A stretch of DNA of 28,963 nucleotides from an uncultured Oscillospiraceae bacterium (lineage in GTDB: Bacteria; Bacillota; Clostridia; UMGS1883). Position 1 is the stretch's first letter. Each line of letters opens with the position of its first letter. The stretch is taken from contig CAYTWZ010000002.1 in NCBI GenBank assembly GCA_964442035.1, positions 2,211-31,173 of the forward strand. The letters run 5' to 3'. The notes beneath the pieces were generated by a model. The model searched no databases. It saw nothing but the letters and a program-made list of their open reading frames with translations, and was not told the origin of the DNA. Made by a program: the position numbers and the translations under genes. Shown piece by piece: positions 1 through 27,571 of the stretch.

Positions 1-21
1 TTAAAAATATATCAGAAAAAA

Positions 22-46
22 GCAGTCCCTTAGGGATTGCTTTTTT
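22..46 (+). terminator. Rho-independent terminator of a gene lying upstream of the window
   Basis: The stem GCAGTCCC (22-29) / GGGATTGC (33-40) has 8 bp including one G-U and is followed by T6 at 41-46. It is preceded by an A-run. ATATATCA (7-14) and TGATATAT (50-57) are also complementary, so the palindrome may extend further. Confidence 0.6.
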
Positions 47-65
47 CATTGATATATGGTAAAAT
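37..65 (+). promoter_or_regulatory. Sigma-A type promoter for trmO
   Basis: TTGCTT (37-42), a 17-nt spacer, and an extended -10 TGgTAAAAT (57-65). Confidence 0.45.
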
Positions 66-108
66 ATTCATAATGAACATCACAAAACAAAGACAGCGGG
101 GAGAACAG

Positions 109-816
109 ATGGAGAACACGCTTAAGGTCATAGCCAGAATACACACCGATTTTCCCGAAAAATTCGGTATACCACGCCAAAGCGGACTTGTGCCGGAAGT
201 AGAGGGACGTATCGTTTTTGAACCGTCGTTCAGAAATCCTCAGGCTCTCTTGGGCATTGAGGAGTATTCCCATATTTGGCTGTTGTGGGACTTTTCCCTT
301 GCGCATACTGAGGATTTCCGCCCTACTGTGTACCCTCCCCGGCTTGGGGGTAAGGTGAAAAAGGGCGTTTTTGCCACAAGGTCACCGTATCGGCCCAATT
401 CAATAGGACTGTCCTGCGTCAGGCTGGAAAGGGTGGAGCATGGGCTTGAGGGCCCTGTCCTTGCGGTAAGCGGGGCGGATATGCTGGACGGAACACCAAT
501 ATATGACATCAAACCGTATCTCCCTTATGCGGACAGCCGCCCGGAGGCATCAGGCGGCTTTGGACAGGAGCATATGAATGACGCGATAGCTGTGGACTTT
601 CCTCCGGATATGCTTGAGCTTTTGCCCCAAAGCAAGCGCTCCGCGGCACTTAAGGTGCTGGGACAGGACCCCAGAGCGGCATATAACAAGGGCGATGGCT
701 ATGTTTACGGAATGGAGTTTGCGGGCTTTGATATACGCTTCAGGGTAAAGGACGGACTTCTGACAGTATGCGGAGTTGTGGAAAGCACTCATGGGCAGTG
801 GGATAAGATCAAGTGA
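109..816 (+). CDS. trmO: tRNA (t6A37-N6)-methyltransferase TrmO (TsaA/YaeB family)
   Basis: The translation has the TsaA-like signature (RQSGL..., HIWLLW, ATRSPYRPNSIGLS, DGTPIYDIKPYLPYAD) plus the usual C-terminal domain. I prefer ATG 109, which has GGGGAG 5-6 nt upstream, over the TTG at 37 in the ORF track, because that TTG sits inside the upstream terminator. Confidence 0.85.
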   Translation: MENTLKVIARIHTDFPEKFGIPRQSGLVPEVEGRIVFEPSFRNPQALLGIEEYSHIWLLWDFSLAHTEDFRPTVYPPRLGGKVKKGVFATRSPYRPNSIGLSCVRLERVEHGLEGPVLAVSGADMLDGTPIYDIKPYLPYADSRPEASGGFGQEHMNDAIAVDFPPDMLELLPQSKRSAALKVLGQDPRAAYNKGDGYVYGMEFAGFDIRFRVKDGLLTVCGVVESTHGQWDKIK

Positions 817-829
817 GGTAATGAATTTT

Positions 830-2200
830 ATGATTGAAAAGCTTAAGGGTCTGTACAAGCAGTATCGGGAGCTTATTGCATATGTTATCGTTGGGGGAAT
901 GACTACAGCGGTCAATCTGGCGGTGTATTGGCTGGACAAGGAAATACTGGGCATCAGCCGCGATCCCAATGTGGTGATCGCGTGGATCGCATCGGTGATA
1001 TTTGCTTATTTTACAAATGCGCTGATCGTTTTCCGCAGCAAAAATACCGGCAGGATAAAGGAGTTTTTAAGGTTTGTGAGCAGCCGTTTGGCGTCGCTGG
1101 CGCTGGAGCTTGTGCTGATGAAGGTGTGCAATGACTTTATCGGTCTAGGAGAATGGTTGTCAAAGTACATTGTGGCAGTTGCTGTAATAGTCGCCAATTA
1201 TGTGTTGAGCAAGCTGTGGGTCTTTGCCAAACGGGAGACGGGGACTAAAAAAATGGGAAGCGCGGAAGATAAGGGCGTTATTCTTACAAAAAGCTGGGTG
1301 GTTTGCGCTCTGGCTTTTGTCTGCTGCGCACTTTGGGGCAGCGCCTTCCCTTGTGTAAAGATCGGCTACAGCCTGTTTGAAATATCGGCCTCCCACGTTG
1401 CGTCGCAGGTGCTTTTTGCCGGTGTGCGTTTCACTTTGGCGGGGGTGATGACCGTTATTATAGCCAGTATAGGGCAAAAACGACTTGTTTACCCCAAAAA
1501 CGCCGGAGAGGTAAGGGGAGTATTTAAGCTTTGTCTTTTTCAGACAGTTATACAGTATATTTTCTTTTACATAGGACTTGCCAGAACAGACGGGGTGAAA
1601 AGCTCCATCATTGAGGCATCCAACGTTTTTGTAGCCATACTTATTGCGGCGCTTGTATTTAAGATCGAAAAGCTGACAGCGGTCAAGGTGATAGGCTGCA
1701 TTGTGGGCTTTGCCGGAGTTGTGCTGATAAACTTAGGCAGCGGCGGCTTTGACGCCAGCATGAGCCTGCTGGGCGAGGGATGTATTTTCCTGTCTACGTT
1801 TTCCTATGCAATTTCCTCTGTGGTAATGAAGTCTTACTCCCAAAAATACGATACCGTGATGATGAGCGGGTGGCAGTTCCTTTTGGGCGGAGTGATACTT
1901 ACCTTGGCCGGACTTGCTTTTGGGGGAGGACTGCCGGTGGTATCATCTCAGGGACTGGCTATGCTTTTTTATCTGGCCTTTGTGTCGGCGGCGGCTTATT
2001 CACTTTGGGCGGTCCTGCTCAAGTACAATTCCGTGTCCAGAGTGTGCGTGTACGGCTTTATGAATCCTATATGCGGAGTTCTGCTTTCCACCTTGCTGCT
2101 TAATGAAAGGGGAAGCTTCGGACTTAAGGGACTTGTATCGCTGGCACTGGTTTGTATCGGCATATACATCGTAAACCGTCAGGAAGCAAAATTATGTTGA
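830..2200 (+). CDS. Fused GtrA-like domain and EamA/DMT-family transporter (10-TM permease)
   Basis: The first ~140 aa resemble a GtrA-family 4-TM protein (YVIVGGMTTAVNLAVYW...ANYVLSKLWVF). The rest resembles a duplicated EamA transporter. The frame is open throughout. The start is ATG 830 (GAGGT 10 nt upstream) or ATG 821. An internal ATG at 1253 with GGGGA 8 nt upstream could also start a stand-alone EamA product. Confidence 0.75.
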   Translation: MIEKLKGLYKQYRELIAYVIVGGMTTAVNLAVYWLDKEILGISRDPNVVIAWIASVIFAYFTNALIVFRSKNTGRIKEFLRFVSSRLASLALELVLMKVCNDFIGLGEWLSKYIVAVAVIVANYVLSKLWVFAKRETGTKKMGSAEDKGVILTKSWVVCALAFVCCALWGSAFPCVKIGYSLFEISASHVASQVLFAGVRFTLAGVMTVIIASIGQKRLVYPKNAGEVRGVFKLCLFQTVIQYIFFYIGLARTDGVKSSIIEASNVFVAILIAALVFKIEKLTAVKVIGCIVGFAGVVLINLGSGGFDASMSLLGEGCIFLSTFSYAISSVVMKSYSQKYDTVMMSGWQFLLGGVILTLAGLAFGGGLPVVSSQGLAMLFYLAFVSAAAYSLWAVLLKYNSVSRVCVYGFMNPICGVLLSTLLLNERGSFGLKGLVSLALVCIGIYIVNRQEAKLC

Positions 2201-2224
2201 CATTGGCGCGTTTTGGTGTATAAT
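2197..2224 (+). promoter_or_regulatory. Sigma-A promoter of the BY-kinase/phosphatase operon
   Basis: TTGACA (2197-2202, overlapping the TGA stop of the previous gene), a 16-nt spacer, and TATAAT (2219-2224). This leaves a ~140-nt 5' UTR. Confidence 0.6.
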
Positions 2225-2229
2225 TAAAG

Positions 2230-2323
2230 TAAGGGATTTTTGAATAATTTGCGCTTGCGGCTTAGAACAACTCTTGAGGTTATTTTACTTACAATCAGCG
2301 TTTTAGAATTAATCAGGGCTTCC
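2230..2323 (+). repeat. Short-form copy (R1) of an imperfect-palindromic intergenic element family
   Basis: The left arm 2230-2276 matches 27572-27618 at 35 of 47 positions by my hand alignment. The right arm CAATCAGCGTTTTAGAATTAATCAGGGCTTCC (2292-2323) matches 27709-27740 and the reverse complement of 24476-24507. The central ~80 nt present in the two long copies is absent. Confidence 0.6.
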
Positions 2324-2367
2324 TTAGGATAAATTATAGGGAAAATTATTCCGGGAGATGATAATTT

Positions 2368-3675
2368 ATGGATGAGTATATGGATGAACTTGACGAAACA
2401 ACTATTGATATAAAGAAAATATTTTTGGTTTTGTTTAAAAGTATGCCGGTGATACTTATTGTGACGCTTGTCTGCGGGGCTGCGGCCTATATTTACAGCA
2501 GCCGCTTCATGACTCCGGTATACTCTGCCCGGGTGCGTCTGTACGTAAACAATCAGCAGGGAGATTCGCAGAAAGTGCAGAACTCAGATATCGCAACGGC
2601 CAATTCCCTTGTGCACGGATATGTGGCAATGATAACTACTGACAAGGTACTTCAGGAGGTAGCCTCCAATATCAATCTGGACTATTCAGCCGAACAGCTG
2701 GCATCCATGATAAGCGCCGAGGGTATTGAGGACACGTCTGTGTTTGTGGTGACGGTTCGAAGCACCAACCCACAGCATGCCCAGCAGATCGCCAATGTTG
2801 TTGCAGAAACAGCACCTCCCCTTATACAGGATATCGTCAAGGGTAGCACTGAGATCATTGACCGGGCAAGCCTACCAAAAACACCGGACTCACCCAATGT
2901 TCTTAAGATCAGCCTTATCGGTATGATCATAGGCTTTGCCGCCGGGGTAGTCGGGGTACTTCTGAAGGACAAATTTGACGTTCGGGTCAAAAGCAGTGCC
3001 ATACTTACTGAAAAATTTGATCTGCCTGTGCTGTCTGAGGCCGATAGCTGCGCCGATGATCCTCTTGAGGGCGGCGAAGCCTACAAAAGGATCAATTCCG
3101 GCATTCGGTTTTCACTTCCAAGACGAAAATGCCGGGTTATTGGTGTAACAAGTGCTGTTAACGGTGAAGGAAAAAGTTTTACCGCATCCCGTATGGCTGC
3201 GGAAGCTGCCCGTGCAGGAAATAAAACCCTGCTTATAGATGGTGACATGAGTGGTCATGGCTTAGGTGCGGCATTTGGTTTTGACAAAGGTAATGGACTG
3301 AGCAATGTTATCGCCGGGGATGAGAACTGCGAAGCAGCGGCATTGCATACAGCTGTCAGCAAGAACCTTGATGTAATAACAGGGGGAGATATTCCGCCTA
3401 ATCCGGAGGAGCTGCTTGCCAGCCCCGAAATGAAGTCTATTGTTGAAGGCTATAGGAATGATTACAGCTATATTATAATAGACATGCCTCCCGTGTCTCG
3501 GCAGACAGCGGAAGCGGCAGCCTCTGCAATGGATGGGATAGTCATGGTGGTGCGCGCACGCAAAACCGGCGCTGATGTGATTTCCGATGCATTGAAGTGG
3601 CTTGCCGACGCGGGTGCAAAAAATCTTGGCTTTGTATTCAATGACCCTGTCAAAACCAATGATTTAAAAGGATAA
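2368..3675 (+). CDS. Fused Wzz/chain-length-determinant domain and CpsD/YwqD-like P-loop (BY-kinase family) protein
   Basis: The N-terminal part is a two-TM Wzz-like region. The C-terminal part has Walker A SAVNGEGKS, Walker A'-like LLIDGDMSG, Walker B IIIDMPP, and the PPNPEELL motif. The start ATG is preceded by GGGAGA with a 9-nt spacer. Confidence 0.8.
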   Translation: MDEYMDELDETTIDIKKIFLVLFKSMPVILIVTLVCGAAAYIYSSRFMTPVYSARVRLYVNNQQGDSQKVQNSDIATANSLVHGYVAMITTDKVLQEVASNINLDYSAEQLASMISAEGIEDTSVFVVTVRSTNPQHAQQIANVVAETAPPLIQDIVKGSTEIIDRASLPKTPDSPNVLKISLIGMIIGFAAGVVGVLLKDKFDVRVKSSAILTEKFDLPVLSEADSCADDPLEGGEAYKRINSGIRFSLPRRKCRVIGVTSAVNGEGKSFTASRMAAEAARAGNKTLLIDGDMSGHGLGAAFGFDKGNGLSNVIAGDENCEAAALHTAVSKNLDVITGGDIPPNPEELLASPEMKSIVEGYRNDYSYIIIDMPPVSRQTAEAAASAMDGIVMVVRARKTGADVISDALKWLADAGAKNLGFVFNDPVKTNDLKG

Positions 3676-3688
3676 AGTGAGGTACACT

Positions 3689-4417
3689 ATGGACTATAAG
3701 CTGATTGATTTTCATACACATATTCTGCCCGGCATTGACGATGGAAGCAAAAATGCGGAAACGTCGGTCAAAATGCTCAAAAGACTGGAAGAACAGGGTG
3801 TAAGCGATGTTGTACTAAGCTCCCACTTTTACGCCTCCCAGAACAGCATTGAGGAATTTGCACTCCGGCGAGAAAAAAGCCTCGGCCGTCTTTTGGAAGA
3901 GCTTGATAAGACTCCCGTAAATATCAGGCTTCACCTTGGGGCGGAGATATTGTTCATGGATTACATTGACCGGGTAGAGGGCCTTAGTGAGCTTGCCATA
4001 GGCAAAACCAAATATATTCTGTTGGAGATGCCCTTTGTCAAGTGGAGCGAAAGGATGCTGGGAACAGTCTACAAGGTCATAGGCAACGGCTACATTCCTG
4101 TTATTGCCCACTTTGAGCGCTACATTCCCATACAGGGAAAGCTGGATTATATATATGAGCTAAAACGTATGGGCTGCATACTTCAGATGAATGCCGGCAA
4201 TTTTAAAGGCTTTTTCCGGAAGGGGAAGGCGTTGAAGTTTTTTGAAGATAATACTGCATCGCTTTTAGGAACAGACTGCCACAATCTGGACAGCCGACCT
4301 CCCGAGCTGAAGGCGGCCTATGAAGCAATAGGCCAGAAGCTTGGGGAAGATGAACTTCGGCGCATAAGCGCTGTAGGGGAAAAAATCCTCGAAAATTCCC
4401 GGACAGTGTATAACTAA
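3689..4417 (+). CDS. PHP-family protein-tyrosine phosphatase (CpsB/YwqE type)
   Basis: The N-terminal sequence is LIDFHTHILPGIDDG, with SSHFY, HFERY and GTDCHN metal-site motifs. I prefer ATG 3689 (GTGAGGT upstream) over GTG 3677. Confidence 0.85.
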   Translation: MDYKLIDFHTHILPGIDDGSKNAETSVKMLKRLEEQGVSDVVLSSHFYASQNSIEEFALRREKSLGRLLEELDKTPVNIRLHLGAEILFMDYIDRVEGLSELAIGKTKYILLEMPFVKWSERMLGTVYKVIGNGYIPVIAHFERYIPIQGKLDYIYELKRMGCILQMNAGNFKGFFRKGKALKFFEDNTASLLGTDCHNLDSRPPELKAAYEAIGQKLGEDELRRISAVGEKILENSRTVYN

Positions 4418-4544
4418 ACGAAAGATGTCCCCCGTTGGCGGGCGATCCTTTCGTTTTCGGGGAGATCAATCTCCCACCGAAAACGCCCCATGACGGGCTT
4501 TCAGCCCTTATTGAACTAAAAACAGGAGAACATTCGGTGGGAGA
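4409..4544 (+). promoter_or_regulatory. Conserved structured intercistronic element, copy A (candidate attenuator or cis-regulatory RNA)
   Basis: 4409-4513 aligns with 25391-25499, including identical 20-nt and 19-nt blocks. Pairings are P1 4416-4424/4448-4456, hairpin 4452-4466/4470-4485, and hairpin 4495-4507 followed by TTATTG. There is also a perfect 12-nt complement between 4470-4481 and 4533-4544. Confidence 0.55.
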
Positions 4545-4577
4545 AAGGCTTTGTATTTTTAAAAGGAGGTATTTGAC

Positions 4578-5339
4578 ATGGGTGACGATTTTACCCTCAG
4601 TGACAAGCAAATTCGTGAAAACCGAAATCGGGAGTACCGCAAAGATCCGCCGGAGCTTATCTTAGTCATAATATGCGTGGCCGCTGTAGTGACGGGTGTG
4701 TTTTTCCCGGGGGAAATGTATGATTCGGTGTTTGGTACCGAGCTTATACTCAGCAATCTCATCCGCGTGTTCTTGGCTGTACTTGGTTTTATATTCGGAG
4801 TGCGAATTATTGTTCCTAACCATAAGATCACTTATATTTTTGGCGGAATAGTGATTCTTGTGTCCGTCATACTGGCCTTTTCTGCTACGCCTGAGGCCAT
4901 GATTGCGTTTGCGATGGGCTTCGCGTCTATGATCGTATCTGCGGCAAGACCGTCGGTGCTTGTAATTACGGCAGCTGCTGTGATACTTGTGGAAATAATA
5001 AAGCGGCTGTATATTATATTCGGCCCCGGACAAAAGGCTTCCCGTGGGGGAAAGGTATTGACCCGTGTATCTGCAATCTTGGGCGGGCTTTCCATATTTA
5101 TTGCGCTGCTGATGCCTATGGTCGATCAGGAGTATCCCGGCATGGCAACGGTCGTGCTTTGGATAGTTGGGCTGATATGCGCCGCCGGCGGGTTTATTAC
5201 AGGAGTTGTTGTAAAGCAGCCGTCATATAATACCGGGGACTGGCTCCGGCTCATAGCTTCAGCGGTGGGTATGGGAATACTGCTTTCCTGTATTACTACA
5301 ATATTCGGCCTCCCCGTGCTCGACTTTATGAGGTGGTAA
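4578..5339 (+). CDS. Polytopic membrane protein of unknown family (~7 predicted TM helices)
   Basis: The ATG at 4578 has a strong SD AAAGGAGGT 7 nt upstream. The sequence has hydrophobic segments throughout. I recognise no motif in it. Confidence 0.6.
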   Translation: MGDDFTLSDKQIRENRNREYRKDPPELILVIICVAAVVTGVFFPGEMYDSVFGTELILSNLIRVFLAVLGFIFGVRIIVPNHKITYIFGGIVILVSVILAFSATPEAMIAFAMGFASMIVSAARPSVLVITAAAVILVEIIKRLYIIFGPGQKASRGGKVLTRVSAILGGLSIFIALLMPMVDQEYPGMATVVLWIVGLICAAGGFITGVVVKQPSYNTGDWLRLIASAVGMGILLSCITTIFGLPVLDFMRW

Positions 5340-5427
5340 GGAATAATAAAAGACTTCCTTTCGGACTCTTGAGATAAGGTCTGAATTGAATACTAAAAAA
5401 CTTTGTTTATTAAGCCGCAAATGAACA

Positions 5428-5469
5428 GACCCCCAAAGGTTAGACCTGAAAATCTAACTTTTGGGGGTC
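5428..5469. terminator. Long hairpin between convergent genes
   Basis: GACCCCCAAAGGTTAGA (5428-5444) pairs with TCTAACTTTTGGGGGTC (5453-5469), giving a 17-bp stem with one mismatch and an 8-nt loop. There is no clean U-tract on either strand. Confidence 0.5.
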
Positions 5470-5501
5470 ACGTCATCTGATAGGGAGTATTTTATTGCCT
5501 G

Positions 5502-7034
5502 TTATTTAAAATACGCCAGCGCTGTCTGCATCTGTATGTCAACTACCTTGTTCATATTGTATTCGTAGTCGTTCAGCGCCATGGCTGTGTAGAAATCTAC
5601 CTCACCGGTGATCTCGATTTCGCTGTACCGCTGGAATACCCTTACAGCCGCCTCAGTGCGGCTGTTGTATATTCCGTCCACTTCGCTGTCGGCCAGCAGC
5701 TTGAGGGCGTTAAGCCTTTGCTCCACCCCAAGCCTTGTGCTGTCGGACTCCAGCATGTCTGGGGCAAGTAATATGTCTGCAAAATCCTCCTCATTTACGG
5801 GAGAAACCTCGTTTTCAACCGCGTAATCCGGGGTAAGTCCTGTGCCGTGGATGCGCTGATCGGAGGGGCTGTAATATTCGCCTATCGTGAACTTCAGCCC
5901 GCTGCCTGTGGGGGTATGCATTATTACCTGCATACAGCCCTTGCCAAAGGTTTTGGTTCCCATCAGCTTTGCGGCATTGCGGCTTTGAAGAGCCATTGCC
6001 AGAAATTCGCTGGCGGATGCGGTGTTTTCGTTTACAAGCACCAGCATTTCGTAGCCCGGAGCGTTGTAGTTTTCGGAGTACAGATCCACATTGTTTGCTT
6101 CATCCCGATATTTGAGCTTGCCGATAATTCCGGCTGAGATCAGCTTACGGGCTACCTCAATGGCCGCGTCGATATCTCCGCCTCCGTTGTCCCTCAGATC
6201 GATTATAACATTGTTTATGCCCTGATTTTTGAGCTGGTCAATGTAGCCGTCAAAGTCCTCAGGCAGAGATGCGGTGAAGGAGTCAACATCGATGTAACCG
6301 ATTTTGCGCCCGGCCTCGTTTTCAATGATATCCATGGTGGAATGACTTTCGGTGACCTTTTGGCGTACAGCACGTACATACAAGAGCTCATCGCCGCGAA
6401 CAATGCCTATATCCACAAAGGTGCCTTCCTCGCCAATGATCAGCTCGCGTGTGGCGGCAGGCTCGTAATTGGAGGTGTCAACTCCGTCCACCGATACGAT
6501 CTGATCGCCTACCTGAATGCCGGCCATCTCGGCTGAGCTGCCGGAAAACACATTCTCGATAACTGTGCCGCCCTTTTGTATAGTCATAGTTACACCTATG
6601 CCGTAAAATGAGGCATTGTAGTAATCAAGCTGCTGGGAGTAGAGCTCGGGAGGGTAATACTCCGCATACTCATCCCCAAGGGTCTTTACCATAGTTTCAA
6701 GGGCAAGATCAATGTCAAACCGACCACCGTTGTCAATGGTGGCACAGATCACGTTGTAAAGCAGGTTTTCGTCAGACACTCCGTAATAGTAGTTGTCGGC
6801 CAAAAGGTGGGCGTAATCCCTGATAAGGTTCTTTTGGCGGAATGCGGAAAGGGCATTTTTGAGCTTGGGATTGTCACTCTCTATTTCTGTGCTTTCCGTA
6901 ATTGCTGGAGTATCCGCCTCGGCTTCTTCGGTAGCGGTAGGTGTGTTGACCTCCGTGCTTGCGGGGCTCTCGGCCAAGACAGGGGTAAAAATCAGCGTCA
7001 GCGCCAGCAGCAGTGATAAAAGTTTGTTTTTCAT
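5502..7034 (-). CDS. S41 family C-terminal processing peptidase with PDZ domain and C-terminal peptidoglycan-binding domain
   Basis: It has a signal peptide, a PDZ region (GIQVGDQIVSVDG), the S41 core (DLRDNGGG...NENTASASE...TFGKG), and a PG_binding_1-like tail (GIYNSRTEAAVRVFQ). Its ATG overlaps the upstream stop as ATGA. Confidence 0.9.
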   Translation of the reverse strand: MKNKLLSLLLALTLIFTPVLAESPASTEVNTPTATEEAEADTPAITESTEIESDNPKLKNALSAFRQKNLIRDYAHLLADNYYYGVSDENLLYNVICATIDNGGRFDIDLALETMVKTLGDEYAEYYPPELYSQQLDYYNASFYGIGVTMTIQKGGTVIENVFSGSSAEMAGIQVGDQIVSVDGVDTSNYEPAATRELIIGEEGTFVDIGIVRGDELLYVRAVRQKVTESHSTMDIIENEAGRKIGYIDVDSFTASLPEDFDGYIDQLKNQGINNVIIDLRDNGGGDIDAAIEVARKLISAGIIGKLKYRDEANNVDLYSENYNAPGYEMLVLVNENTASASEFLAMALQSRNAAKLMGTKTFGKGCMQVIMHTPTGSGLKFTIGEYYSPSDQRIHGTGLTPDYAVENEVSPVNEEDFADILLAPDMLESDSTRLGVEQRLNALKLLADSEVDGIYNSRTEAAVRVFQRYSEIEITGEVDFYTAMALNDYEYNMNKVVDIQMQTALAYFK

Positions 7035-7666
7035 GGCAGTTCCTTTCTGATGTGGCCATATATGGAGGCCAGAGCATTGTTAAGTAAAATATATCGAGCC
7101 ATGGCTAAAGGAGCATATCCGTCTCTTAGCCCTTCCCGGTCATAATATTCCGACGCCGCGGAAATGATTTCCTCCGGTTCATCCCAGCCCAAAGCCCACA
7201 AAAGCCTTTCGGCCTCAGAGGATATAAGCAAATTTGCGTCTTCCCGGCCGTCGGGGGGCGTTCCGTGGAGCTCAAGCATTTTTTTCAGCCTGTTATAAAT
7301 ATATATGTGCCTGAATTTCGGGTCAGACATCTCCGGCATAGGTAGCTCAGGCAGCTCCGCAGCAGGGCTCAGAGCTTCGGACAAAAAGCCCGTATCAGAG
7401 AAAAAGCTTACAAAGCCCTTCCCCGTATTTGCCGGGCGCAGACCCCCACGGGGCTCTATTGCTGTTACAAGATTCGCAGCGATTACCTCCGCACTCACAG
7501 ACAACTCCTTCGCAAGTACAAAGGCCGCCGTGACGGAAAAAGCCCCGTTGCTCCTATCCTTGGGACGTATTACGGAAAATTCGGGACAAAAGCCGTACAG
7601 CCTGAACGCGGCTTCCTCCGTGATGGAGCAGACCAGCCCCTTGCGGTTCTCTAAGGCCGCTTTCAC
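7031..7666 (-). CDS. ArgRS-derived protein with an Arg_tRNA_synt_N-like domain plus a DALR-like C-terminus and no catalytic core
   Basis: RPKDRSNGAFSVTAAFVLAK and TGKGFVSFF parallel the ArgRS N-terminal motifs (PKD..HGDY.....A..LA and GPGFINF). The C-terminal helices resemble the end of the DALR domain. No HIGH or KMSK motifs are present. The GTG start overlaps the DUF1934 stop as GTGA. Confidence 0.55.
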   Translation of the reverse strand: MKAALENRKGLVCSITEEAAFRLYGFCPEFSVIRPKDRSNGAFSVTAAFVLAKELSVSAEVIAANLVTAIEPRGGLRPANTGKGFVSFFSDTGFLSEALSPAAELPELPMPEMSDPKFRHIYIYNRLKKMLELHGTPPDGREDANLLISSEAERLLWALGWDEPEEIISAASEYYDREGLRDGYAPLAMARYILLNNALASIYGHIRKELP

Positions 7667-8079
7667 GGGCGCACCTTTACACTCAGCAAATTGTGACTGT
7701 GAGAAATATTGTTGATGGAAAGATTGTAGTCTATATCCAGTTTTCCGCCGTCCTCATCCATGTTTACGGAAACGTCGTTGGCGGTTACGCTTACGGTGAG
7801 GTTGCCGAAAGGTGTTTCGTAGCAGCTTATGTGACACTGTCCCTTTTCAAAAACCATCCTCGTGTTTGCCTCACCGCTGCGGAGCATTGTTATTACTCCG
7901 TCAGGGGAAATCTTGAGGGTGGTGCTGCATTTTTCCCGGCCTATAAGCTCACCCTCAGGATAGTTGATGTAATATTTGCCGGACTTCTTATAAAAGTGTC
8001 CTTCTGTGCAGTAATTCATTTTGTCGGTGTCACCGCCGGCAGTGACATGTCCGTTGATCTCTACATATACCTGTTTCAT
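7663..8079 (-). CDS. DUF1934 (YwiB-like) beta-barrel protein
   Basis: Its length and sequence pattern resemble YwiB-family proteins, which usually sit next to argS in Firmicutes. ATG 8079 has GAGGT 7 nt upstream. I prefer it to the longer ORF-track start at 8136, which would overlap murI. Confidence 0.7.
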   Translation of the reverse strand: MKQVYVEINGHVTAGGDTDKMNYCTEGHFYKKSGKYYINYPEGELIGREKCSTTLKISPDGVITMLRSGEANTRMVFEKGQCHISCYETPFGNLTVSVTANDVSVNMDEDGGKLDIDYNLSINNISHSHNLLSVKVRP

Positions 8080-8104
8080 TTGTTTAACCTCGCAAGTGTA
8101 TCCT

Positions 8105-8902
8105 TTAAAGTACGGTTCTGTGGACGCTGAGCTCAATTTCCCTGCCCAGAAACATCCCTCCCAGCTTTACAAAGCTTTCGGTGCTGTCAGAAACATAGAA
8201 CTCGTAGTGTCCCTTCTTATTTCCTTCGTTGAGCATGTTTTCTTCACTGAGTATCTTTTTGGTGTAGCAGGCTGCTTCACGGCCTGAGGATATGAGCTTT
8301 ACGTCTTCTCCCATTATATCACCGATCACCTTTTCAAGCAAGGGGTAATGTGTACATCCCAAGATAAGCGTATCCACGTTTTCCTTTTTAAGGGGAGTAA
8401 GGTAATCTCTGGCCACTATACGAGCCACCTCACTGTCAGCGTAGCCATTTTCCACAATGGGTACAAACATGGGGCATGCCGCGCTGAACACATGTACATC
8501 CGGCTCAAGCTGGCGGATTATCTGGGCATATTTATCGCTTTGGATAGTACCGGCAGTGCCGATTACACCGATATGGCCGTTTCTTGAACGCTTGATCGCC
8601 GCCCGGCAGGCGGGCTCAAGCACGCCGATGATCCTTACCCCCATGTCTCCAAGGTAGGGGAGGGCAACGCTGCTGGCAGTGCCGCAGGCGGCAAGTATAA
8701 TCTTGATGTTGTATTTAAGCAAAAAATTTACATCGTCCTTTGTGTAGCGTATAAGTGTTTCCCGGCTCCTGTTGCCATAGGGGACACGTCCCGTGTCTCC
8801 GAAGTATATTATATCCTCGCCGGGCAAAACGCTTATTAGCTGCTTGACAGAGGTCAGTCCGCCTAACCCGCTGTCAAAAACCCCGATAGGGCGATTGTCC
8901 AT
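8105..8902 (-). CDS. murI: Glutamate racemase
   Basis: Motifs are PIGVFDSGLGGLT, ACGTAS and LGCTHYP with both catalytic Cys residues. ATG 8902 has GGAGGA 6 nt upstream. Confidence 0.92.
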   Translation of the reverse strand: MDNRPIGVFDSGLGGLTSVKQLISVLPGEDIIYFGDTGRVPYGNRSRETLIRYTKDDVNFLLKYNIKIILAACGTASSVALPYLGDMGVRIIGVLEPACRAAIKRSRNGHIGVIGTAGTIQSDKYAQIIRQLEPDVHVFSAACPMFVPIVENGYADSEVARIVARDYLTPLKKENVDTLILGCTHYPLLEKVIGDIMGEDVKLISSGREAACYTKKILSEENMLNEGNKKGHYEFYVSDSTESFVKLGGMFLGREIELSVHRTVL

Positions 8903-9051
8903 AGAAATTCCTCCATAATTAATGATAGTGGTATTATTGAATCTCCCGCTGAAATCCTGAGGAGTGAGCGTCCCCTGCGCAGGTTGCAATCGTTCGCAAG
9001 ATCCATTTCAAGCAAGCTTGATGGAGCGTTGTTCCGATTTAAACCGGCAGA

Positions 9052-13775: not shown

Positions 13776-16700
13776 TTATTTGCTTACTGACGTCAATGCG
13801 CATGAGGATGAGCCTGAGTACGTGCCGCCGGTCACTATTCCGTATGGCTCTTTCCCCGTGAAAGCGCCACCTGTTACGCTCCCTCCGTAATTTAATGTGT
13901 ATGAGCCGCTTTTGATTTCAGGTGTTGATATAAATACCCATGCGTATGCTTTTGACGGTACATATGTCACAATTTCATCCCCGCTTGAATTTGTTAGCTT
14001 GAACGCCTTACCCGCTGATTGTGATGAAAAGCCGCCTGAACCGCCCCACATACCGCTGCCGGAGGAACTTGACGAAGTCACAACGTAATACTGCTTCGCG
14101 CTGTCGGGAGTTATCGCCATATCGGATGAACCTGCGCCAATTACAGTACCTCCTGTAATTGAAAGTGTGTCGCCGTTGTTATCGCCTATGTCAAACACGC
14201 CGTTCCCGCCGCTTGTGGGGCCGTTTACAAGAAGCGTACCGCCCGAAATTAGAGCGCTGCCGTTGCTGTCAAAGCCATCGCCCTCTGCTTCGATATAGAC
14301 CAGTCCGCCGGATATTTCAACATATCCGTATGTCGACGAATCCTCACCGCCCCAGTTGGGACCGCTGTTCCAGCCTTGATTGCCGCCGTTCCAGCCTTGA
14401 TTGCCGCCCGGCCCCGCTAAAAGCTCAACTGACAAAGCGGAAACGGTATCAATGTCATATGCGCTGTCTGTCGGCTTGTCGCCTGCCGCGTTTACACCGT
14501 CGTCAGAGGAAACGATTCTTGTTTCACCGCCTAAAACATATATATTTGCGGCTTCTATGCCTTCATAGCTCTTTGTAATATTTATATCGGCGTTATCGCT
14601 TATATAAAGATAGCTGTCGCCGTGTATCCCATCGTCGCCTGTGGCGGCGGTTATGCTTCCGCCGATTATGCGCACAGTATGGTTTGAATGAACGGCGTCA
14701 TCATAGGTGTTTATATTGAAAGTGCCGCCACTGATATAAACAAGGTTGCCGCCCTTTACGCCCTTACAGCTGCTCGCCGCCTCGGGATTGTTTGCCGAAA
14801 CGGTCTGGGGCGCACCGCCGTATGCGGTCAAATCAAATGTGCCGCCGGAAATATTTGTTATGTTCTCGCTTTGTATACAATCCTGCTGGGAATTTACAGT
14901 GATATTGCCGTCTGTAACAACAACATTTCCGGTCCCGCACTGTATTCCGTCCTCGCTACAGGTTATGTCAAGAGTTCCTCCGTTGATATCAATTTCACCC
15001 TCTACATAGGCGAGAACCGTTGCTCCGTCTGTGTCGTATATTACCTCATTTACTTGAATTCCCTCCAAGGCTTTGGTGATCGTTATATTTGCGCCGCTAC
15101 CTATTGTAATGTTTTTTACCGCTTTGATTCCGTCCTCACCGGCCGACGCGACAATTGTGCCGCCTGTGATCGCCACACAGCCATCGCCCTCGGCAGGCGT
15201 GCCACTTGTTAACGTCGTGTCCTCAAGGTATGCAATGCTCGAAGCATTAGCCTTGATAGCTTCACCCGCGGCGTTGATCGTTATGTCGCCGCCAGTGATC
15301 GTGAGAAGAGTATCAGCTTGTATGCCGTCCCCGTTTGATACAGTGCCGTCCGTGCCTGTTGTTGTTTTTGAGGTTATATTTATTGTGCCGCCGTTTATCG
15401 TAACAGAACCGCCGGAAACGTATTCATTTGTCAGCGCGTCAATTTCAGGATCCTGATCGGACTTGATTCCGTCTCCTCCGGAAACAACCGTTATCGAATT
15501 GTTTTTCTTTGTGATTTTTACGGATTGGTCACCCTTTATGCCGTTGTTTGCGGCAGTAACATTTAAATCGCAGACGCCAATTTCGATGTCGTTCTTACAG
15601 CGTATGCCGTTCCCGTAATCGGATATTGCGTTAAGCGTTCCCTCACCCTTTATTGTAAGGTCATTCTTGCTGTAAATTGCTGTTGTATCCCCGTCCGATG
15701 AAGCTGATCTGAATGTGCTTTCGTTTTCTGTGGGAACAAGTGTTACCGTTCCCTTTAAACCGTCAAACGCGTTCCCCGTTGTGCTTGTTACGCTTACACC
15801 GTCAAGATTGACGGTGATTAAATCTGTCTTTTCGGAGGAATTAACTATTATCTGTCCATCGTTTAATGTGCCCTCAACGGTATATTCTCCCGCCGCCGTA
15901 ATTGTAACGGCAGTTCCAGATACGGTTACATTTTCAATGCCATCGGCATTCACGCTGTCACCCATAAGATGTATTATTCCGTCACCCGCGGAAATTACGG
16001 GATCCTGTGGAGATTCCTCCTCAGTCGCTTTGGTGGTGACGGTAACAGTGATATCGCCTGTTATCTTGGTTATTCTGTATGTATTTTCCCCAAGCTCGGA
16101 GGGCAGCTTTAGATTTTTGTAATTTGTTGACGGGGTCACTTCAACAGATTCGATCTCGTAGCCCTCATCCGCGGTAATCTTAAAATTCACCTGTCCGTTG
16201 CCGGAGGTATCGATTTCGCCGGTGTCGCCGCTTCGCGCGTATGCCTCTGTAACAAACTGCTCATCGCCTGTAAACACCTGCGTGTCAGACACGGCTATTG
16301 ATGCGTGGGAATCGGTCTCAAATGTCGCTTTAAAGCCCTCCGCTGTCGTTGCCTTGGTGGTGACGGTAACAGTGATATCGCCTGTTATCTTGGTTATTCT
16401 GTATGTATTTTCCCCAAGCTCGGAGGGCAGCTTTAGATTTTTGTAATTTGTTGACGGGGTCACTTCAACAGATTCGATCTCGTAGCCCTCATCCGCGGTA
16501 ATCTTAAAATTCACCTGTCCGTTGCCGGAGGTATCGATTTCGCCGGTGTCGCCGCTTCGCGCGTATGCCTCTGTAACAAACTGCTCATCGCCTGTAAACA
16601 CCTGCGTGTCAGACACGGCTATTGATGCGTGGGAATCGGTTTCAAATGTTGCTTTAAAGCCCTCCACAGGAACAAACACATCACTTAGCGGCTCAAGGGT

Positions 16701-17033
16701 CAGTACGCCGTTTTCTGTTTTCCAGAAAAAAGCTTTTAAAACATCGCCGTCATCTTTTAATGTGCTGTTAAAGACAAGCGACTTGTTGCCGGTTCCGTTT
16801 GTTTCTTCGGATACCACAATGCCCTTGAGCTGCCCTAAAGAGTCATATACCGCAACAATTCCTTTCCCGCTTTCGTCTGAGCCTTTGCTTACGACCATTG
16901 ATATATTTCCGTTCTCGTCAATATCCAATGAGGTAATTGAGCAGGCAAGCTCTGCCGCCTCCGCGGCAATTGAAAAAACCATCAGCGATAAAACGATGAT
17001 AAAACATAGAACCTTTGTGGAAATGGATCTCAC
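13776..17033 (-). CDS. Secreted Cthe_2159-like beta-helix carbohydrate-binding-domain protein with duplicated N-terminal domains
   Basis: A signal peptide is followed by two near-identical 108-aa domains. A long run of GDGI(K/Q/H)xD, DDGIH, YEGIEA, DDGVNA and GDGFDSNG turns follows, which is typical of the PF14262-type parallel beta-helix. The GTG start has GAGGAGGA 6 nt upstream. Confidence 0.7.
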   Translation of the reverse strand: MRSISTKVLCFIIVLSLMVFSIAAEAAELACSITSLDIDENGNISMVVSKGSDESGKGIVAVYDSLGQLKGIVVSEETNGTGNKSLVFNSTLKDDGDVLKAFFWKTENGVLTLEPLSDVFVPVEGFKATFETDSHASIAVSDTQVFTGDEQFVTEAYARSGDTGEIDTSGNGQVNFKITADEGYEIESVEVTPSTNYKNLKLPSELGENTYRITKITGDITVTVTTKATTAEGFKATFETDSHASIAVSDTQVFTGDEQFVTEAYARSGDTGEIDTSGNGQVNFKITADEGYEIESVEVTPSTNYKNLKLPSELGENTYRITKITGDITVTVTTKATEEESPQDPVISAGDGIIHLMGDSVNADGIENVTVSGTAVTITAAGEYTVEGTLNDGQIIVNSSEKTDLITVNLDGVSVTSTTGNAFDGLKGTVTLVPTENESTFRSASSDGDTTAIYSKNDLTIKGEGTLNAISDYGNGIRCKNDIEIGVCDLNVTAANNGIKGDQSVKITKKNNSITVVSGGDGIKSDQDPEIDALTNEYVSGGSVTINGGTINITSKTTTGTDGTVSNGDGIQADTLLTITGGDITINAAGEAIKANASSIAYLEDTTLTSGTPAEGDGCVAITGGTIVASAGEDGIKAVKNITIGSGANITITKALEGIQVNEVIYDTDGATVLAYVEGEIDINGGTLDITCSEDGIQCGTGNVVVTDGNITVNSQQDCIQSENITNISGGTFDLTAYGGAPQTVSANNPEAASSCKGVKGGNLVYISGGTFNINTYDDAVHSNHTVRIIGGSITAATGDDGIHGDSYLYISDNADINITKSYEGIEAANIYVLGGETRIVSSDDGVNAAGDKPTDSAYDIDTVSALSVELLAGPGGNQGWNGGNQGWNSGPNWGGEDSSTYGYVEISGGLVYIEAEGDGFDSNGSALISGGTLLVNGPTSGGNGVFDIGDNNGDTLSITGGTVIGAGSSDMAITPDSAKQYYVVTSSSSSGSGMWGGSGGFSSQSAGKAFKLTNSSGDEIVTYVPSKAYAWVFISTPEIKSGSYTLNYGGSVTGGAFTGKEPYGIVTGGTYSGSSSCALTSVSK
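16031..16665 (-). repeat. Near-perfect tandem duplication (2 x 324 bp, in frame) inside the large secreted protein gene
   Basis: 16031-16341 is repeated at 16355-16665 with an offset of 324. The only differences I see are two C/T changes near 16316/16640 and 16325/16649. Confidence 0.9.
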
Positions 17034-22054: not shown

Positions 22055-24451
22055 TCAATCCTCCAATATCTCGTCCACACACATATCCGCCAGCTCACGG
22101 GCGTATTCTTCACAGTACCCTTGGCTGGTTATATTTATGGAAGAGAAACCCTCCGATGGAGTCAGCAGTACCCAGCCCTTGTCAAAGCTCAGTTTTATAC
22201 CGTCGGTCAGATCCATAGGCTGGCTTTGATGACGGCTGTATATTTTGTTCATAGCTTGGGAGGTTTCGGCGCAGTCTACACCGGTGTGTATCATGTGGGT
22301 CTCGGGCAGACGGGCAAGAAGCTCGGACAATGAAGCGTTTTCGCTTTTCATAAAGTCAATCAGCTTGATCAGCGCGCCCACCGCATCAAAGGCGTAGATA
22401 AACTGGTCATACAGCATGGGGTCATCGGATTTGGTCAGCTCGCGCATAAGCTCCGGCGGAGAATTACGGGTGCGTACCACTACAGCACCGTATTTTTCAG
22501 CCAAAAGCTCAACTCCCGAAGGCGCTGATATCGGAACGTAGATTTTGGCGCCCCTGTGGGTATGCATTACAATCATAGCGGACAGAAGAGTGTATATATC
22601 ACGGCTGATTATTCTCCCGCTAATATCGATGAGGGTCAGTTCCTGACAGGACGGGTCGATAACAGCTCCCAGATCCGCGCCTTCTTCCTTTACGGCCTGG
22701 GCGATCTCATGAGGGCCTTTGTCAGAGGTCTCCACATGGCAGTTGAGATCATTGCCGGCGCTTTTCAGCAGACGCTTTGCCCAGTCGGAGCTGCCTCCTA
22801 CCAGCAACTTGTAGCCGAGGCTTTGCTTTTTAGTGGAGTTGATAAGGTTTTTGAGATAAAACAGCTTGTATTCAAAAAGGTACTCCGCATCCTTAATGTT
22901 TTCGCTGCTCCCCCGGGAAAAGTCCTCCAGTCGAAAGCTGCTTTTAAGCCTGTTCATCAGCTCGGACTGCGGGTCTGCACCGTTGGGACCTATGAGCTTG
23001 ATTTCTCCGTAGTCAGCTCCTCCCCGGGTATATACGTTTACCGCCGCACCGCCCCACAGCCGATGAAAGCGGACTCCGCTTCGGCTTACTGGAAGAGGCT
23101 GTTCCCCAAAGTCAAAGATTTTTGCTCCTGTGGAGAGCACTCCGCCGATGAAGGCGGATTTCAGCATTGCCGCCGCCGGTGAGCCGCTGTCGGATACGCC
23201 TACGCCGCAGCCATCCGCTGCTGTGCCAAAGGCTGCACCAAGGAGGGTCATTGTTTCGGGAGTTATTTCGCTGCCAAGCTCTCCCTGTACTCCGGCAGAG
23301 CTCCATATCCGTCCTCCCCCTACGCTACCCCATATAAGGTTGGAATGCTGCACGGTATCCGGAGGAAGCTCCTTATGTGGCCATATACGGACACCGGGCT
23401 TTACGGCACAGTTTTCACCTACCACGCTGCCGCTGCCTATCACTGCCTGCTCGTATACGGCGCTCCCGCGTTTAAGGACAGCTTCGCGGTCTATTACCGC
23501 ACCTCTAAGCTGAGCGTTTTCCTCCAGTCTGCATCCGTCAAGGGCAATGCCCCGCTTGATGCCGGATCCGGCACAGAGAGTGACCCCGCGGCCTATTACG
23601 CTGTAGGGCTCTACTCTGGAACCACGTAGGATACGGCTGCGCCCTCCGATAAATGCCGGCGGGCGCAGTACGGCTCCCTGCTGTATTTCGGCCCCGCTTT
23701 CAACCCAGATGCCCTCACTGTATTCCTCCGGCATGTTCAGCGCGGTTTTCCGATCAAGTATATCCCCGTGACAGCGGCGGTAGTCCCCAAGGCTCCCGAT
23801 GTTGCACCAGTATCCGCCGTGGGGCATACCGTATATACCGCGTTTGTCATTAAGCAAAACCGGAAATATGTCTCGTATCAGGTCAGTAAAAATTCCCTCG
23901 GGTATCAGTGTCAGCAGCTTAGGCGAGAGCACTCCCACTCCGCAGCTTATATATGAGGATGCAACAAGCCCCCAGTCCGTACTTTCGAACAGCCTGTTTA
24001 TCCGTCCTCCTTCTCCGATGGTCATTGTCGCCCGGTGAGGATATGGGGAGGCGGGTGCCAGCGCAATGGAGGCCAATGCTTTGCGGCTTTTGTGGAAACG
24101 AATAAGAGACGTAATGTCCATGTCCGTTATCACCGAGCCGCTCATTGCAACAAAGTCCCCATCTACAAAGTCCCAGGCGTTTTTTAACGCTCCGGCAGTA
24201 CCCAAGGGTGTATCTTCATTAAAATACGTCAGTCTAACTCCTAAGGCCGTACCGTCACCGAAAAATTCGCGTATTTTGCCTGCCATGTACCCTTCTGTTA
24301 CGGCAATTTCAGTTATGGCGTGCTTCTTCAGTAGCTTTATACAGTGCTCCATTATGGGCGCACCCATAATATTGAGCATAGGCTTTGGCCTGTCACAGGT
24401 GAGCGGCCTAAGCCGCGTGCCCTCGCCGCCGGCCAGAATTATAGCTTTCAC
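22055..24451 (-). CDS. Sugar-phosphate nucleotidyltransferase (GlmU/ManC-like with LbH domain) fused to a phosphohexomutase-like domain
   Basis: The N-terminal motif is LAGGEGTRLRPLT..PKP. Hexapeptide-repeat segments follow, then a four-subdomain PGM/PMM-like C-terminal half. The GTG start has AAGGGGGA 7 nt upstream. Confidence 0.8.
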   Translation of the reverse strand: MKAIILAGGEGTRLRPLTCDRPKPMLNIMGAPIMEHCIKLLKKHAITEIAVTEGYMAGKIREFFGDGTALGVRLTYFNEDTPLGTAGALKNAWDFVDGDFVAMSGSVITDMDITSLIRFHKSRKALASIALAPASPYPHRATMTIGEGGRINRLFESTDWGLVASSYISCGVGVLSPKLLTLIPEGIFTDLIRDIFPVLLNDKRGIYGMPHGGYWCNIGSLGDYRRCHGDILDRKTALNMPEEYSEGIWVESGAEIQQGAVLRPPAFIGGRSRILRGSRVEPYSVIGRGVTLCAGSGIKRGIALDGCRLEENAQLRGAVIDREAVLKRGSAVYEQAVIGSGSVVGENCAVKPGVRIWPHKELPPDTVQHSNLIWGSVGGGRIWSSAGVQGELGSEITPETMTLLGAAFGTAADGCGVGVSDSGSPAAAMLKSAFIGGVLSTGAKIFDFGEQPLPVSRSGVRFHRLWGGAAVNVYTRGGADYGEIKLIGPNGADPQSELMNRLKSSFRLEDFSRGSSENIKDAEYLFEYKLFYLKNLINSTKKQSLGYKLLVGGSSDWAKRLLKSAGNDLNCHVETSDKGPHEIAQAVKEEGADLGAVIDPSCQELTLIDISGRIISRDIYTLLSAMIVMHTHRGAKIYVPISAPSGVELLAEKYGAVVVRTRNSPPELMRELTKSDDPMLYDQFIYAFDAVGALIKLIDFMKSENASLSELLARLPETHMIHTGVDCAETSQAMNKIYSRHQSQPMDLTDGIKLSFDKGWVLLTPSEGFSSINITSQGYCEEYARELADMCVDEILED

Positions 24452-24475: not shown

Positions 24476-24646
24476 GAAAACGCTGATTGATTCTAAAATG
24501 CTGATTGGCGGGAAAATTTTTCTCGCAGTAAGGCAAAAAGCGCATGATTACTTGCTGTATTATGGGCTTCTTTAACCGAACTGCGGGGGAAATAACCGTC
24601 AAGCAGCGTTTTAAGCCGTAGACGTGAATTAATCAGAGCTTCCTTG
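24476..24646 (-). repeat. Long-form copy (R2) of the imperfect-palindromic intergenic element family
   Basis: The reverse complement aligns end to end with 27572-27740. Its arms carry GCTGATT x2 (24482-24488, 24500-24506) and AAGCAG/AATCAG (24601-24606, 24630-24635) in inverted orientation. It ends 24 nt before the GTG of the nucleotidyltransferase gene. Confidence 0.6.
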
Positions 24647-24796
24647 ATATTATTTGCCGGGAGAAAAATCTTATTCCAGGAAAACTACGGATCCATACAT
24701 TTGATATAGTTCGGTTCCATCCATGCGATTTTTGCTTTAACTTTTTTGCCCGCAATCAAAAATACAAATAATACAAAAAAAATTACAAGATTGTTC

Positions 24797-24852: not shown

Positions 24853-25395
24853 ATGTATGTGCTTCCCGGAACAAATATTGAAGTAGGGGAGCTGTCCTTT
24901 GACAGCGTTAATTCGCTGCTGAATTCAATTTTTCTCACAGGAGGACTGGTGCTTAGTCAGGTGGCAGGAATGACTGACTGTGCTCCACATGTGGTGCAGA
25001 ATTGGGTCAAAAGAGGGTTTGTTTCGCCGCCGGTGAACAAGAAATACAGCAAGCGGCAGTTTTGCAGAATAGCCTTTATCAACTTTTTGAAGGATGTGAT
25101 GCAGATCGACAAGGTCACGGCGCTGATGGAATATATTAATGGGGCGCTGGATGATGAAAGCGATGATCTGGTGGATGACTGTACGCTGTACTGCTACTTT
25201 GCTCAGGTAATAGGACAGCTGACGGACTTCCGCCGGGACACCATAGAGTCTGTGGTGGAAAAGTCGGTCTCCGGAGGAGGAGACAGCTATATCCAAGTCA
25301 GGCTCAAGGCCACACTTATAGTTATGGCCACCTCTTACGGAGCGGCAATGCTTCGAAGCAGGGTCAATTTGCTTATAAGTCAGTTGGATATATAA
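24853..25395 (+). CDS. Putative MerR-like HTH protein of the DUF1836 (YkrK-like) type
   Basis: The segment LSQVAGMTDCAPHVVQNWVKRGFVSPPVNKKYSKRQFCRIAFINFLKD fits the pattern I remember for DUF1836 proteins (t..mi.nyvK......P..KkYs..h......i..LK). The SD is GAGGG, 7 nt upstream of the ATG. Confidence 0.5.
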   Translation: MYVLPGTNIEVGELSFDSVNSLLNSIFLTGGLVLSQVAGMTDCAPHVVQNWVKRGFVSPPVNKKYSKRQFCRIAFINFLKDVMQIDKVTALMEYINGALDDESDDLVDDCTLYCYFAQVIGQLTDFRRDTIESVVEKSVSGGGDSYIQVRLKATLIVMATSYGAAMLRSRVNLLISQLDI

Positions 25396-25499: not shown

Positions 25500-25523
25500 G
25501 AAAAAAAGGGGGTCAAGGGGATA

Positions 25524-27561: not shown

Positions 27562-27571
27562 AGCTGTAACC

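Follow-up and report, generated by a model that had tools for sequence, protein, structure and literature searches.

The window analyzed here, a stretch of 28,963 nt from an uncultured Oscillospiraceae bacterium (contig CAYTWZ010000002.1) to which all positions refer, carries near its left end three compact genes that run in one direction between a promoter at 2197-2224 and a hairpin at 5428-5469. The first (2368-3675, plus strand; assigned with Pfam and NCBIfam) encodes a 435-aa protein in which a Wzz-type polysaccharide co-polymerase (PCP) is fused to a domain resembling bacterial tyrosine kinases (BY-kinases); the second (3689-4417, plus strand, with a GTG also in frame at 3677) encodes a CpsB/CapC-type PHP phosphatase recognized by PF19567; and the third (4578-5339, plus strand) encodes a membrane protein of 253 aa with about seven transmembrane (TM) segments. 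A 5' leader, R1 (2225-2367, plus strand), precedes the kinase gene, and an intercistronic repeat, element A (4409-4521, plus strand), sits in the 160-nt spacer ahead of the membrane-protein gene. An independent Logan assembly (L089) reaches 2.3 kb to the left of the window and extends the sequence covered to about 31 kb. The features that a sequence-only reading of this DNA had described were all found in place, and its picture of a compact, co-directional unit free of polysaccharide-assembly genes is supported. We find the locus to be a fairly ordinary stand-alone regulator pair of the capsule-type kinase/phosphatase kind, whose new point is neither the orphan operon nor the membrane protein: it is the presence of a kinase devoid of its tyrosine tail beside a phosphatase that is intact.

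The 435-aa protein matches the Pfam families Wzz (PF02706, 1.4e-15), GNVR (2.8e-4), AAA_31 and ParA, and its architecture is that of an N-terminal Wzz/CpsC-like PCP with two TM segments followed by a C-terminal BY-kinase-type P-loop domain; the two hydrophobic stretches expected of a PCP were read from the translation at about residues 18-44 and 179-202. The profile TIGR01007 (eps_fam, “tyrosine autokinase”), whose cut-off is 108.05 bits, reaches 139.3 over its positions 1-189 of 204, leaving the tail part of the profile uncovered, and the match to TIGR01006 (1.7e-44) stays below its cut-off. The protein is identical in the independent Logan assembly.

Alignments with 13 homologs and with structures of CapA-CapB, Wzc and Etk place a Walker A motif, GEGKS, at residues 266-270, opposite GAGKS of CapB, and show the Walker B motif (IIIDMPP, 369) and the PPNP motif to be present. 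The Walker A' motif (LLIDGDM) keeps both aspartates, but the position that follows is a serine (DGDMSGH), whereas 56 of 58 homologs have an arginine or a lysine there. At the EX2RX2R position the protein reads EAYKRIN, with glutamate and lysine kept and the second basic residue replaced by asparagine; the pattern E-x2-[RK]-x2-[RK] is present in 53 of 64 homologs. The C-terminal tyrosine cluster is missing: the last tyrosine lies no later than residue 368, and the chain ends in ...GFVFNDPVKTNDLKG, ten residues past the last conserved strand. In a census of 64 homologous kinases, taken as frame-matched open reading frames (ORFs) from fetched loci, every one carries at least three tail tyrosines (range 3-27). 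Since the kinase stop codon lies only 13 nt upstream of the CpsB start, a frameshifted remnant of the tail is impossible. Such a tyrosine cluster is the substrate in the canonical cycle of autophosphorylation and octamer dissociation (PMC12004946). Having lost the tyrosine cluster and two arginines, that of Walker A' and the second one of EX2RX2R, the 435-aa protein is predicted not to be a canonical autokinase.

The adjoining phosphatase is 242 aa long from its best start, the ATG at 3689, and matches PF19567 at 2.3e-48. Its alignment to Cps4B (2WJD/2WJE) and YwqE (3QY6) keeps HxH (as HTH), SSH, GAE, LLE, AHFERY, DCHNLD and SRPP, residues that we take to be the metal ligands and the arginine of these two enzymes, and its metal-binding residues appear intact.

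Comparison with the nearest syntenic relative, an 11.6-kb contig (L006), helps to place these losses in time. There, trmO is followed by a methyltransferase gene, EamA, (SIR2), CpsC, CpsD and CpsB, and then by convergent DUF4234, CBS and DUF6062 genes; no exopolysaccharide (EPS) genes are found on this contig. In the window, trmO (37/109-816; ORF listing with Pfam and NCBIfam) lies upstream of a gene fusing GtrA and EamA (821-2200; PF04138 and PF00892), after which comes the kinase gene. The two organisms share 58% identity in trmO, 67% in EamA, 47% in Wzz/CpsC, 40% in kinase/CpsD and 55% in CpsB, so that the kinase domain is the least conserved member of the syntenic block (47-67% for its neighbors). 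The kinase of the relative is separate from CpsC and canonical, with EAYKALR, GEGKS, DCDLRRP and a YVKYGNYGAYG tail. As the gene order is the same and EPS genes are absent from the relative, the stand-alone module beside trmO/EamA is older than the split of both organisms, and it is in the window lineage that the genes fused and the tail was lost.

That BY-kinase and CpsB pairs normally head capsule or EPS clusters was a premise of the sequence-only reading which proved weak in this clade. Seeded with the two CpsB orthologs, a scan of GTDB genomes returned 80 Clostridia loci, the majority of them with the order Wzz, kinase, CpsB. Where at least 8 kb was available on both sides, 23 of 37 loci lack a phosphoglycosyltransferase (PGT), a glycosyltransferase of family GT4, Wzx and EpsG according to locally built profiles; these profiles are narrow, hence a Pfam scan was added as a further test. 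It covered 135 neighbor ORFs located within 6 kb in 16 of the loci and placed no glycosyltransferase among the top 25 families; there were 2-3 occurrences each of families of the LytR, sortase, CapD and Wzx types. In two loci (L004 and L005) a fused kinase and CpsB are accompanied by PGT and LytR only. The ptkA and ptpZ genes of Bacillus subtilis likewise form one operon outside the eps operon, and the substrates of PtkA are many (PMC4304235). Taken with the EPS-free relative, these counts suggest that the module was already an orphan in the ancestor and that such orphans are common in the clade.

Two further observations came out of the same census. In eight loci (L022, L026, L029, L032, L033, L055, L063 and L079), CpsB is followed at about 0.6-0.7 kb by a single-TM sortase-domain protein of about 250-270 aa and at about 2.1-2.3 kb by LytR/LCP, and a sortase-like ORF is found at other positions in four further loci, which suggests a link of CpsB modules to cell-wall anchoring. 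GtrA was also considered as a recurrent neighbor of the module and rejected: it accounts for 3 of the 135 neighbor ORFs, and the one that could be placed lies 2.7 kb off on the opposite strand.

The third gene of the unit begins behind a strong ribosome-binding site (RBS; AAGGAGG at 4563-4569), and hydropathy with the positive-inside rule suggests a topology of about seven TM segments in which the N-terminus is charged and cytoplasmic and residues 141-164 form a basic loop. The sequence-only reading had called this protein unrecognizable, and so it is: no match was obtained in Pfam (best E 0.068), NCBIfam, PHROGs, PADLOC or the PDB. A word-indexed search of 5.8 billion proteins returned two matches, the protein itself and P0002, a homolog of 87% amino-acid identity encoded in GCA_037194145.1 on a contig of 1 kb. 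Nothing beyond P0002 came from an exhaustive phmmer search that covered 1.84 billion cluster representatives, and a scan of GTDB genomes, which depends on exact 8-residue words, gave nothing; another candidate homolog, P0003, was discarded as a repetitive false positive. An AlphaFold2 model, the route to a fold that had been proposed, was made from the two-sequence alignment and is too poor for a fold search (pLDDT 44, pTM 0.26).

The reading frame is nevertheless a real gene. Its codons differ from those of the P0002 gene by 54 synonymous and 33 non-synonymous changes, 65 of the 98 nucleotide differences fall in third codon positions, and the NG86 ratio of non-synonymous to synonymous rates (dN/dS) is 0.16; the ratio and the third-position bias exclude a spurious frame. 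Recent horizontal transfer was considered and set aside, the GC and GC3 contents being similar to those of the neighbors. A copy identical to that of the window was found on a 1.8-kb Logan contig. No homolog was detected (E <10; 88 loci compared) in the orthologous module of L006 or in any of the 80 GTDB CpsB loci, and what follows CpsB varies widely, being LytR, sortase, PGT, EpsG, radical SAM, a transporter, metK or a convergent gene. Seen from the side of the module there is no conserved linkage, given this absence and this variability. These comparisons make the 253-aa protein a likely lineage-restricted orphan gene product (ORFan) under purifying selection, and they argue that it is not a conserved partner of the kinase-phosphatase module.

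In the only relative of this gene (L002, 802-860), the reading frame is followed directly by a canonical terminator, GGCTTCCG...CGGAAGCC TTTTTT. Positions 5340-5400 of the window resemble a degraded version of that terminator, with the strong hairpin 90 nt further on.

Transcription of the unit can start from a sigma-70 promoter, TTGACA-16 nt-TATAAT (2197-2224, plus strand), the sole 12/12 match in positions 1-9000 of the window, whose -35 hexamer shares bases with the stop codon of the GtrA-EamA gene (TGA, 2198-2200). No terminator was seen between this gene and the promoter, so read-through from trmO and GtrA-EamA is also possible. The promoter is located in a decayed copy (about 2178-2330, plus strand) of a family of intergenic repeats of about 165 nt, found in both orientations and bounded by terminal inverted repeats of about 20 nt, AAGGAAGCGCTGATTAATTC...GAATTAATCAGCGCTTCCTT. 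Besides this copy there are three well-conserved ones, 75-84% identical and recognized by alignment with R1, at 24478-24650 (plus strand), at 27567-27738 (reverse complement) and, just left of the window, at 2114-2275 of the Logan assembly (reverse complement). Folding of an intact copy gives a single long hairpin (DNA fold z = -5.25). R1 retains the right terminal repeat, GAATTAATCAGGGCTTCCTT (2306-2325), and its own fold is no better than that of shuffles (z = -0.6). No Rfam match was found for it, either in the window at gathering thresholds or in a sensitive scan of 2190-2380, which returned noise only (E >=0.63). R1 had been taken for a leader; because of its further copies and its unremarkable fold, it is instead a decayed repeat resembling a miniature inverted-repeat transposable element (MITE) that encloses a perfect promoter.

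Element A contains a terminator-like hairpin (hairpin 1, 4416-4456) overlapping the stop codon of CpsB. A short U tract follows, made of the last U's of the stem and U4457, and further on come a second hairpin and then the GGGCUUUCAGCCC hairpin. No promoter-like site scoring at least 9/12 occurs in 4418-4577. A second copy, 73% identical over 124 nt, lies at 25391-25507, starts at the stop of a DUF1836/MerR-like gene of 180 aa (24853-25395) and ends about 30 nt before the RBS of a membrane-protein gene (ATG 25536), which is followed by a flotillin/SPFH gene (26185-27561). A common origin of the two genes lying downstream of the copies was rejected, BLASTP showing no similarity. In both copies the 3' arm of a hairpin runs into 4-5 U, giving the look of a weak intrinsic terminator, and a second hairpin is able to pair with the U tract. 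A leaky terminator in element A would lower expression of the 253-aa gene relative to the upstream genes, so that the separate gating proposed by the sequence-only reading may occur in this form.

The sequence-only reading had also regarded the promoter and the hairpin at 5428-5469 as the limits of the unit. Both exist, but the hairpin, a 17-bp stem lying between the 253-aa gene and a convergent S41 peptidase gene (5502-7034, minus strand), is not followed by a T-run when read on the plus strand; read on the minus strand, its tail is moderately T-rich. The region that contains it (5340-5501) folds with z = -7.4, and it is likely a terminator, better placed for the peptidase gene.

Pfam confirmed the neighbors that had been named, trmO and GtrA-EamA upstream and the S41 peptidase downstream. 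The remaining window ORFs scanned with Pfam, an annotation that extends up to 27.6 kb, comprise glycolysis genes, murI, a PotABCD-like transporter, a Cthe_2159 protein, a fusion of nucleotidyl (NTP) transferase and phosphomannomutase (PMM) domains and a flotillin operon, and the 2.3 kb added on the left contribute one gene only, for a DUF4901/SLH protein. Neither set contains a glycosyltransferase, a flippase, a polymerase or a PGT, so that the absence of adjacent polysaccharide-assembly genes holds for about 31 kb; a Wzx/Wzy-dependent capsule or EPS cluster, with PGT, glycosyltransferases, Wzx and Wzy at one locus, is not what the scanned ORFs describe. Glycan-related neighbors are limited to the GtrA domain and the distant NTP-transferase/PMM fusion.

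As for the former, the GtrA-EamA ORF is 459 aa long, and the fusion was confirmed in the Logan assembly (469-aa call). Its EamA part has its nearest homologs in stand-alone EamA proteins from uncultured Clostridia/Oscillospiraceae; the listed non-self homologs of the whole protein (55-74% identity) cover the EamA part alone, or 65-75% of the query, and GtrA is in none of them. The fusion seems specific to the window lineage. The NTP-transferase/PMM fusion is a 798-aa protein (22055-24451, minus strand) combining a nucleotidyl transferase, hexapeptide repeats and a phosphoglucomutase/PMM-like domain; located 17 kb from the kinase gene, it is a possible sugar-nucleotide synthesis enzyme and, besides GtrA, the sole glycan-precursor gene of the window.

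Three other observations concern the rest of the window. A tandem duplication of 318 nt, 98.7% identical (16024-16341 and 16348-16665), sits within the gene of the 1085-aa Cthe_2159 carbohydrate-binding protein (13776-17033, minus strand). An exact direct repeat of 55 nt occurs at 28303-28357 and 28909-28963, 606 nt apart, the second copy being cut by the window edge. Finally, a 211-aa protein (7031-7666, minus strand) matches the N-terminal domain of arginyl-tRNA synthetase alone (PF03485), and its gene overlaps a DUF1934 gene (7663-8136, minus strand) by 4 nt.

We favor, at a probability of roughly 60%, a reading in which the locus is a stand-alone PCP/BY-kinase/CpsB module whose kinase, fused and tail-less, now serves as an ATPase, a scaffold or a hetero-kinase, followed by an unrelated membrane-protein gene that is read through a leaky terminator. 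The core would be a lineage-conserved envelope-regulatory module of the CpsC/CpsD/CpsB type, standing alone beside trmO and an EamA transporter gene. Its ancestor, similar to the L006 locus, would have encoded a separate PCP protein, a canonical tyrosine-tailed BY-kinase and a PHP phosphatase. In the window lineage, the PCP and kinase genes would then have fused into one frame of 435 codons that kept the nucleotide-binding motifs, and the loss of the tail, of the Walker A' arginine and of the second EX2RX2R arginine would have ended the canonical cycle of trans-autophosphorylation and dephosphorylation. BY-kinase-like proteins without catalytic or tyrosine residues, such as EcpK and HfsB, are known as pseudokinases that act as scaffolds (PMC12004946); the 435-aa protein may be a membrane-anchored ATPase or scaffold of this sort, or else a kinase for other proteins. 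The phosphatase would act on those other proteins, or on a separate kinase encoded elsewhere, and the module would most likely tune how a cell-wall glycopolymer, produced by genes located elsewhere in the genome, is synthesized or attached. The 253-aa gene, specific to the lineage, would have come to lie downstream and would probably be transcribed by read-through of the leaky terminator in element A.

Several points weigh against this interpretation. That the EPS genes are located elsewhere is an assumption. If tyrosine phosphorylation has become irrelevant, it is odd that an intact cognate phosphatase should adjoin a kinase without a tail. The same lineage has lost the tyrosine tail and gained the 253-aa gene, a coincidence seen once (n = 1) that fits a functional link as well. 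In addition, the 39 nt upstream of the P0002 gene, all that could be compared, are identical to the window at 33 positions; the P0002 gene thus probably has the same upstream spacer, which is compatible with a conserved linkage.

The last two points also speak for what the sequence-only reading had proposed, namely that the kinase-phosphatase pair has a dedicated partner or target in the 253-aa protein. This protein could for instance be a new phospho-acceptor replacing the tyrosine tail, the three genes then making up one signaling system. The genes are co-directional and tightly spaced, no separate promoter was detected between them, and the predicted cytoplasmic N-terminal tail contains a tyrosine, Y20, that is also present in P0002. 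However, neither the orthologous module of L006 nor any of the 80 other CpsB loci has a homolog of this protein, the gene that comes after CpsB is highly variable, a terminator-like hairpin divides the 253-aa gene from CpsB, the repeat in the spacer recurs in an unrelated operon, and the structural model is unusable. We regard a dedicated partnership as unlikely.

Improbable to a similar degree is a module in decay, in which the kinase domain would no longer work, being a mere open frame, and the locus would have lost any coherent function. The domain has indeed diverged further than the rest of the syntenic block (40% identical to L006 vs 47-67%), and three motif elements kept by nearly all homologs are gone. 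Set against this are an intact 435-aa frame with no difference between two independent assemblies, retention of Walker A, of both Walker A' aspartates, of Walker B and of PPNP, a TIGR01007 score that exceeds the cut-off, a phosphatase that is fully intact and a perfect consensus promoter ahead of the genes.

A further proposal, compatible with any of the others, concerns element A, which had been seen as a structured element and could be a dedicated cis-regulatory RNA (riboswitch or attenuator) gating membrane-protein genes. Each copy starts at the stop codon of the gene that precedes it and reaches to about 30-55 nt before the RBS of a membrane-protein gene, both fold with z about -2.3, and hairpin 1 is kept in both despite indels, the GGGCUUUCAGCCC hairpin being identical. 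With two copies only, however, covariation statistics are impossible. No Rfam match was obtained at gathering thresholds in the window or, for 4400-4590, at E up to 5, where only noise (E >=0.63) appeared, and a search of JGI metagenomes with the core of the element gave two chance matches only, with dissimilar flanks. The second copy lies beside an unrelated DUF1836/MerR-like gene, and a repeat origin is simpler, as the genome carries other dispersed intergenic repeats. Element A is best described as a repeat, with no device specific to the locus, and a dedicated regulator is quite unlikely.

Lastly, a rewired unit is very unlikely, in which a fused, tail-less kinase with an active ATP site and an intact phosphatase at its side would phosphorylate, or be regulated by, the newly acquired, lineage-specific 7-TM protein with Tyr20 in its cytoplasmic tail, and which would if true be a new three-component membrane signaling unit detached from polysaccharide assembly. 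This idea stays alive because the tail was lost and the gene gained in the same lineage, and because Tyr20 is conserved.

Returning to the stand-alone module with a modified kinase, its interest depends on whether the tail-less fused protein works. If it does, it would extend a class of BY-kinase-like proteins without tyrosine autophosphorylation, recognized only recently, to Gram-positive Clostridia, and the role of the adjoining intact phosphotyrosine phosphatase would become the question. The census suggests that Wzz-kinase-CpsB modules of gut and rumen Clostridia often lie apart from glycosyltransferase clusters, which is useful for annotation: taken alone, such modules should not serve to call capsule loci. 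The 253-aa protein, for its part, adds one more lineage-restricted ORFan.

Among known systems, the module is most directly compared with CpsC/CpsD/CpsB of Streptococcus pneumoniae and CapA/CapB/CapC of Staphylococcus aureus, with which it shares a Wzz co-polymerase with two TM segments, a P-loop BY-kinase fold, a PHP phosphatase and the order of these parts; the top PDB matches are CapA-CapB chimeras (1.9e-27) and Cps4B (9.6e-25). Unlike in these systems, the PCP and the kinase are fused, as in PCP-2a proteins, the tyrosine cluster is absent, serine and asparagine replace the Walker A' arginine and the second EX2RX2R arginine, respectively, and the module is located outside a cps/cap cluster with no LytR/CpsA gene nearby.

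In its placement away from a polysaccharide operon, the set of modulator, kinase and PHP phosphatase recalls PtkA and PtpZ of B. subtilis with the activator TkmA, and YwqE (PtpZ) is a direct PDB match of the window phosphatase. PtkA autophosphorylates on a C-terminal tyrosine cluster, and its operon also encodes the substrate Ugd; in contrast, the window kinase is tail-less and the gene that follows the phosphatase encodes an unclassifiable membrane protein. PtkA, for which autophosphorylation is established, has many non-EPS substrates (PMC4304235).

The fused architecture itself is shared with Wzz-kinases of gut and rumen Clostridia (P0005-P0029; L003-L005), at 30-34% identity. These differ from the window protein in that all have tyrosine-rich tails, many also have a tyrosine-rich linker, and they are 470-570 aa long vs 435 aa. 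For the lack of a phospho-acceptor tail on a BY-kinase fold, the counterparts are the pseudokinases EcpK of Myxococcus xanthus and HfsB of Caulobacter crescentus, which are proposed to act on their PCP via protein-protein contacts and not via tyrosine phosphorylation (PMC12004946). Both are from Gram-negative bacteria, and EcpK also lacks catalytic residues, whereas the window protein keeps Walker A, the aspartates of Walker A' and Walker B, with an intact phosphatase gene adjoining.

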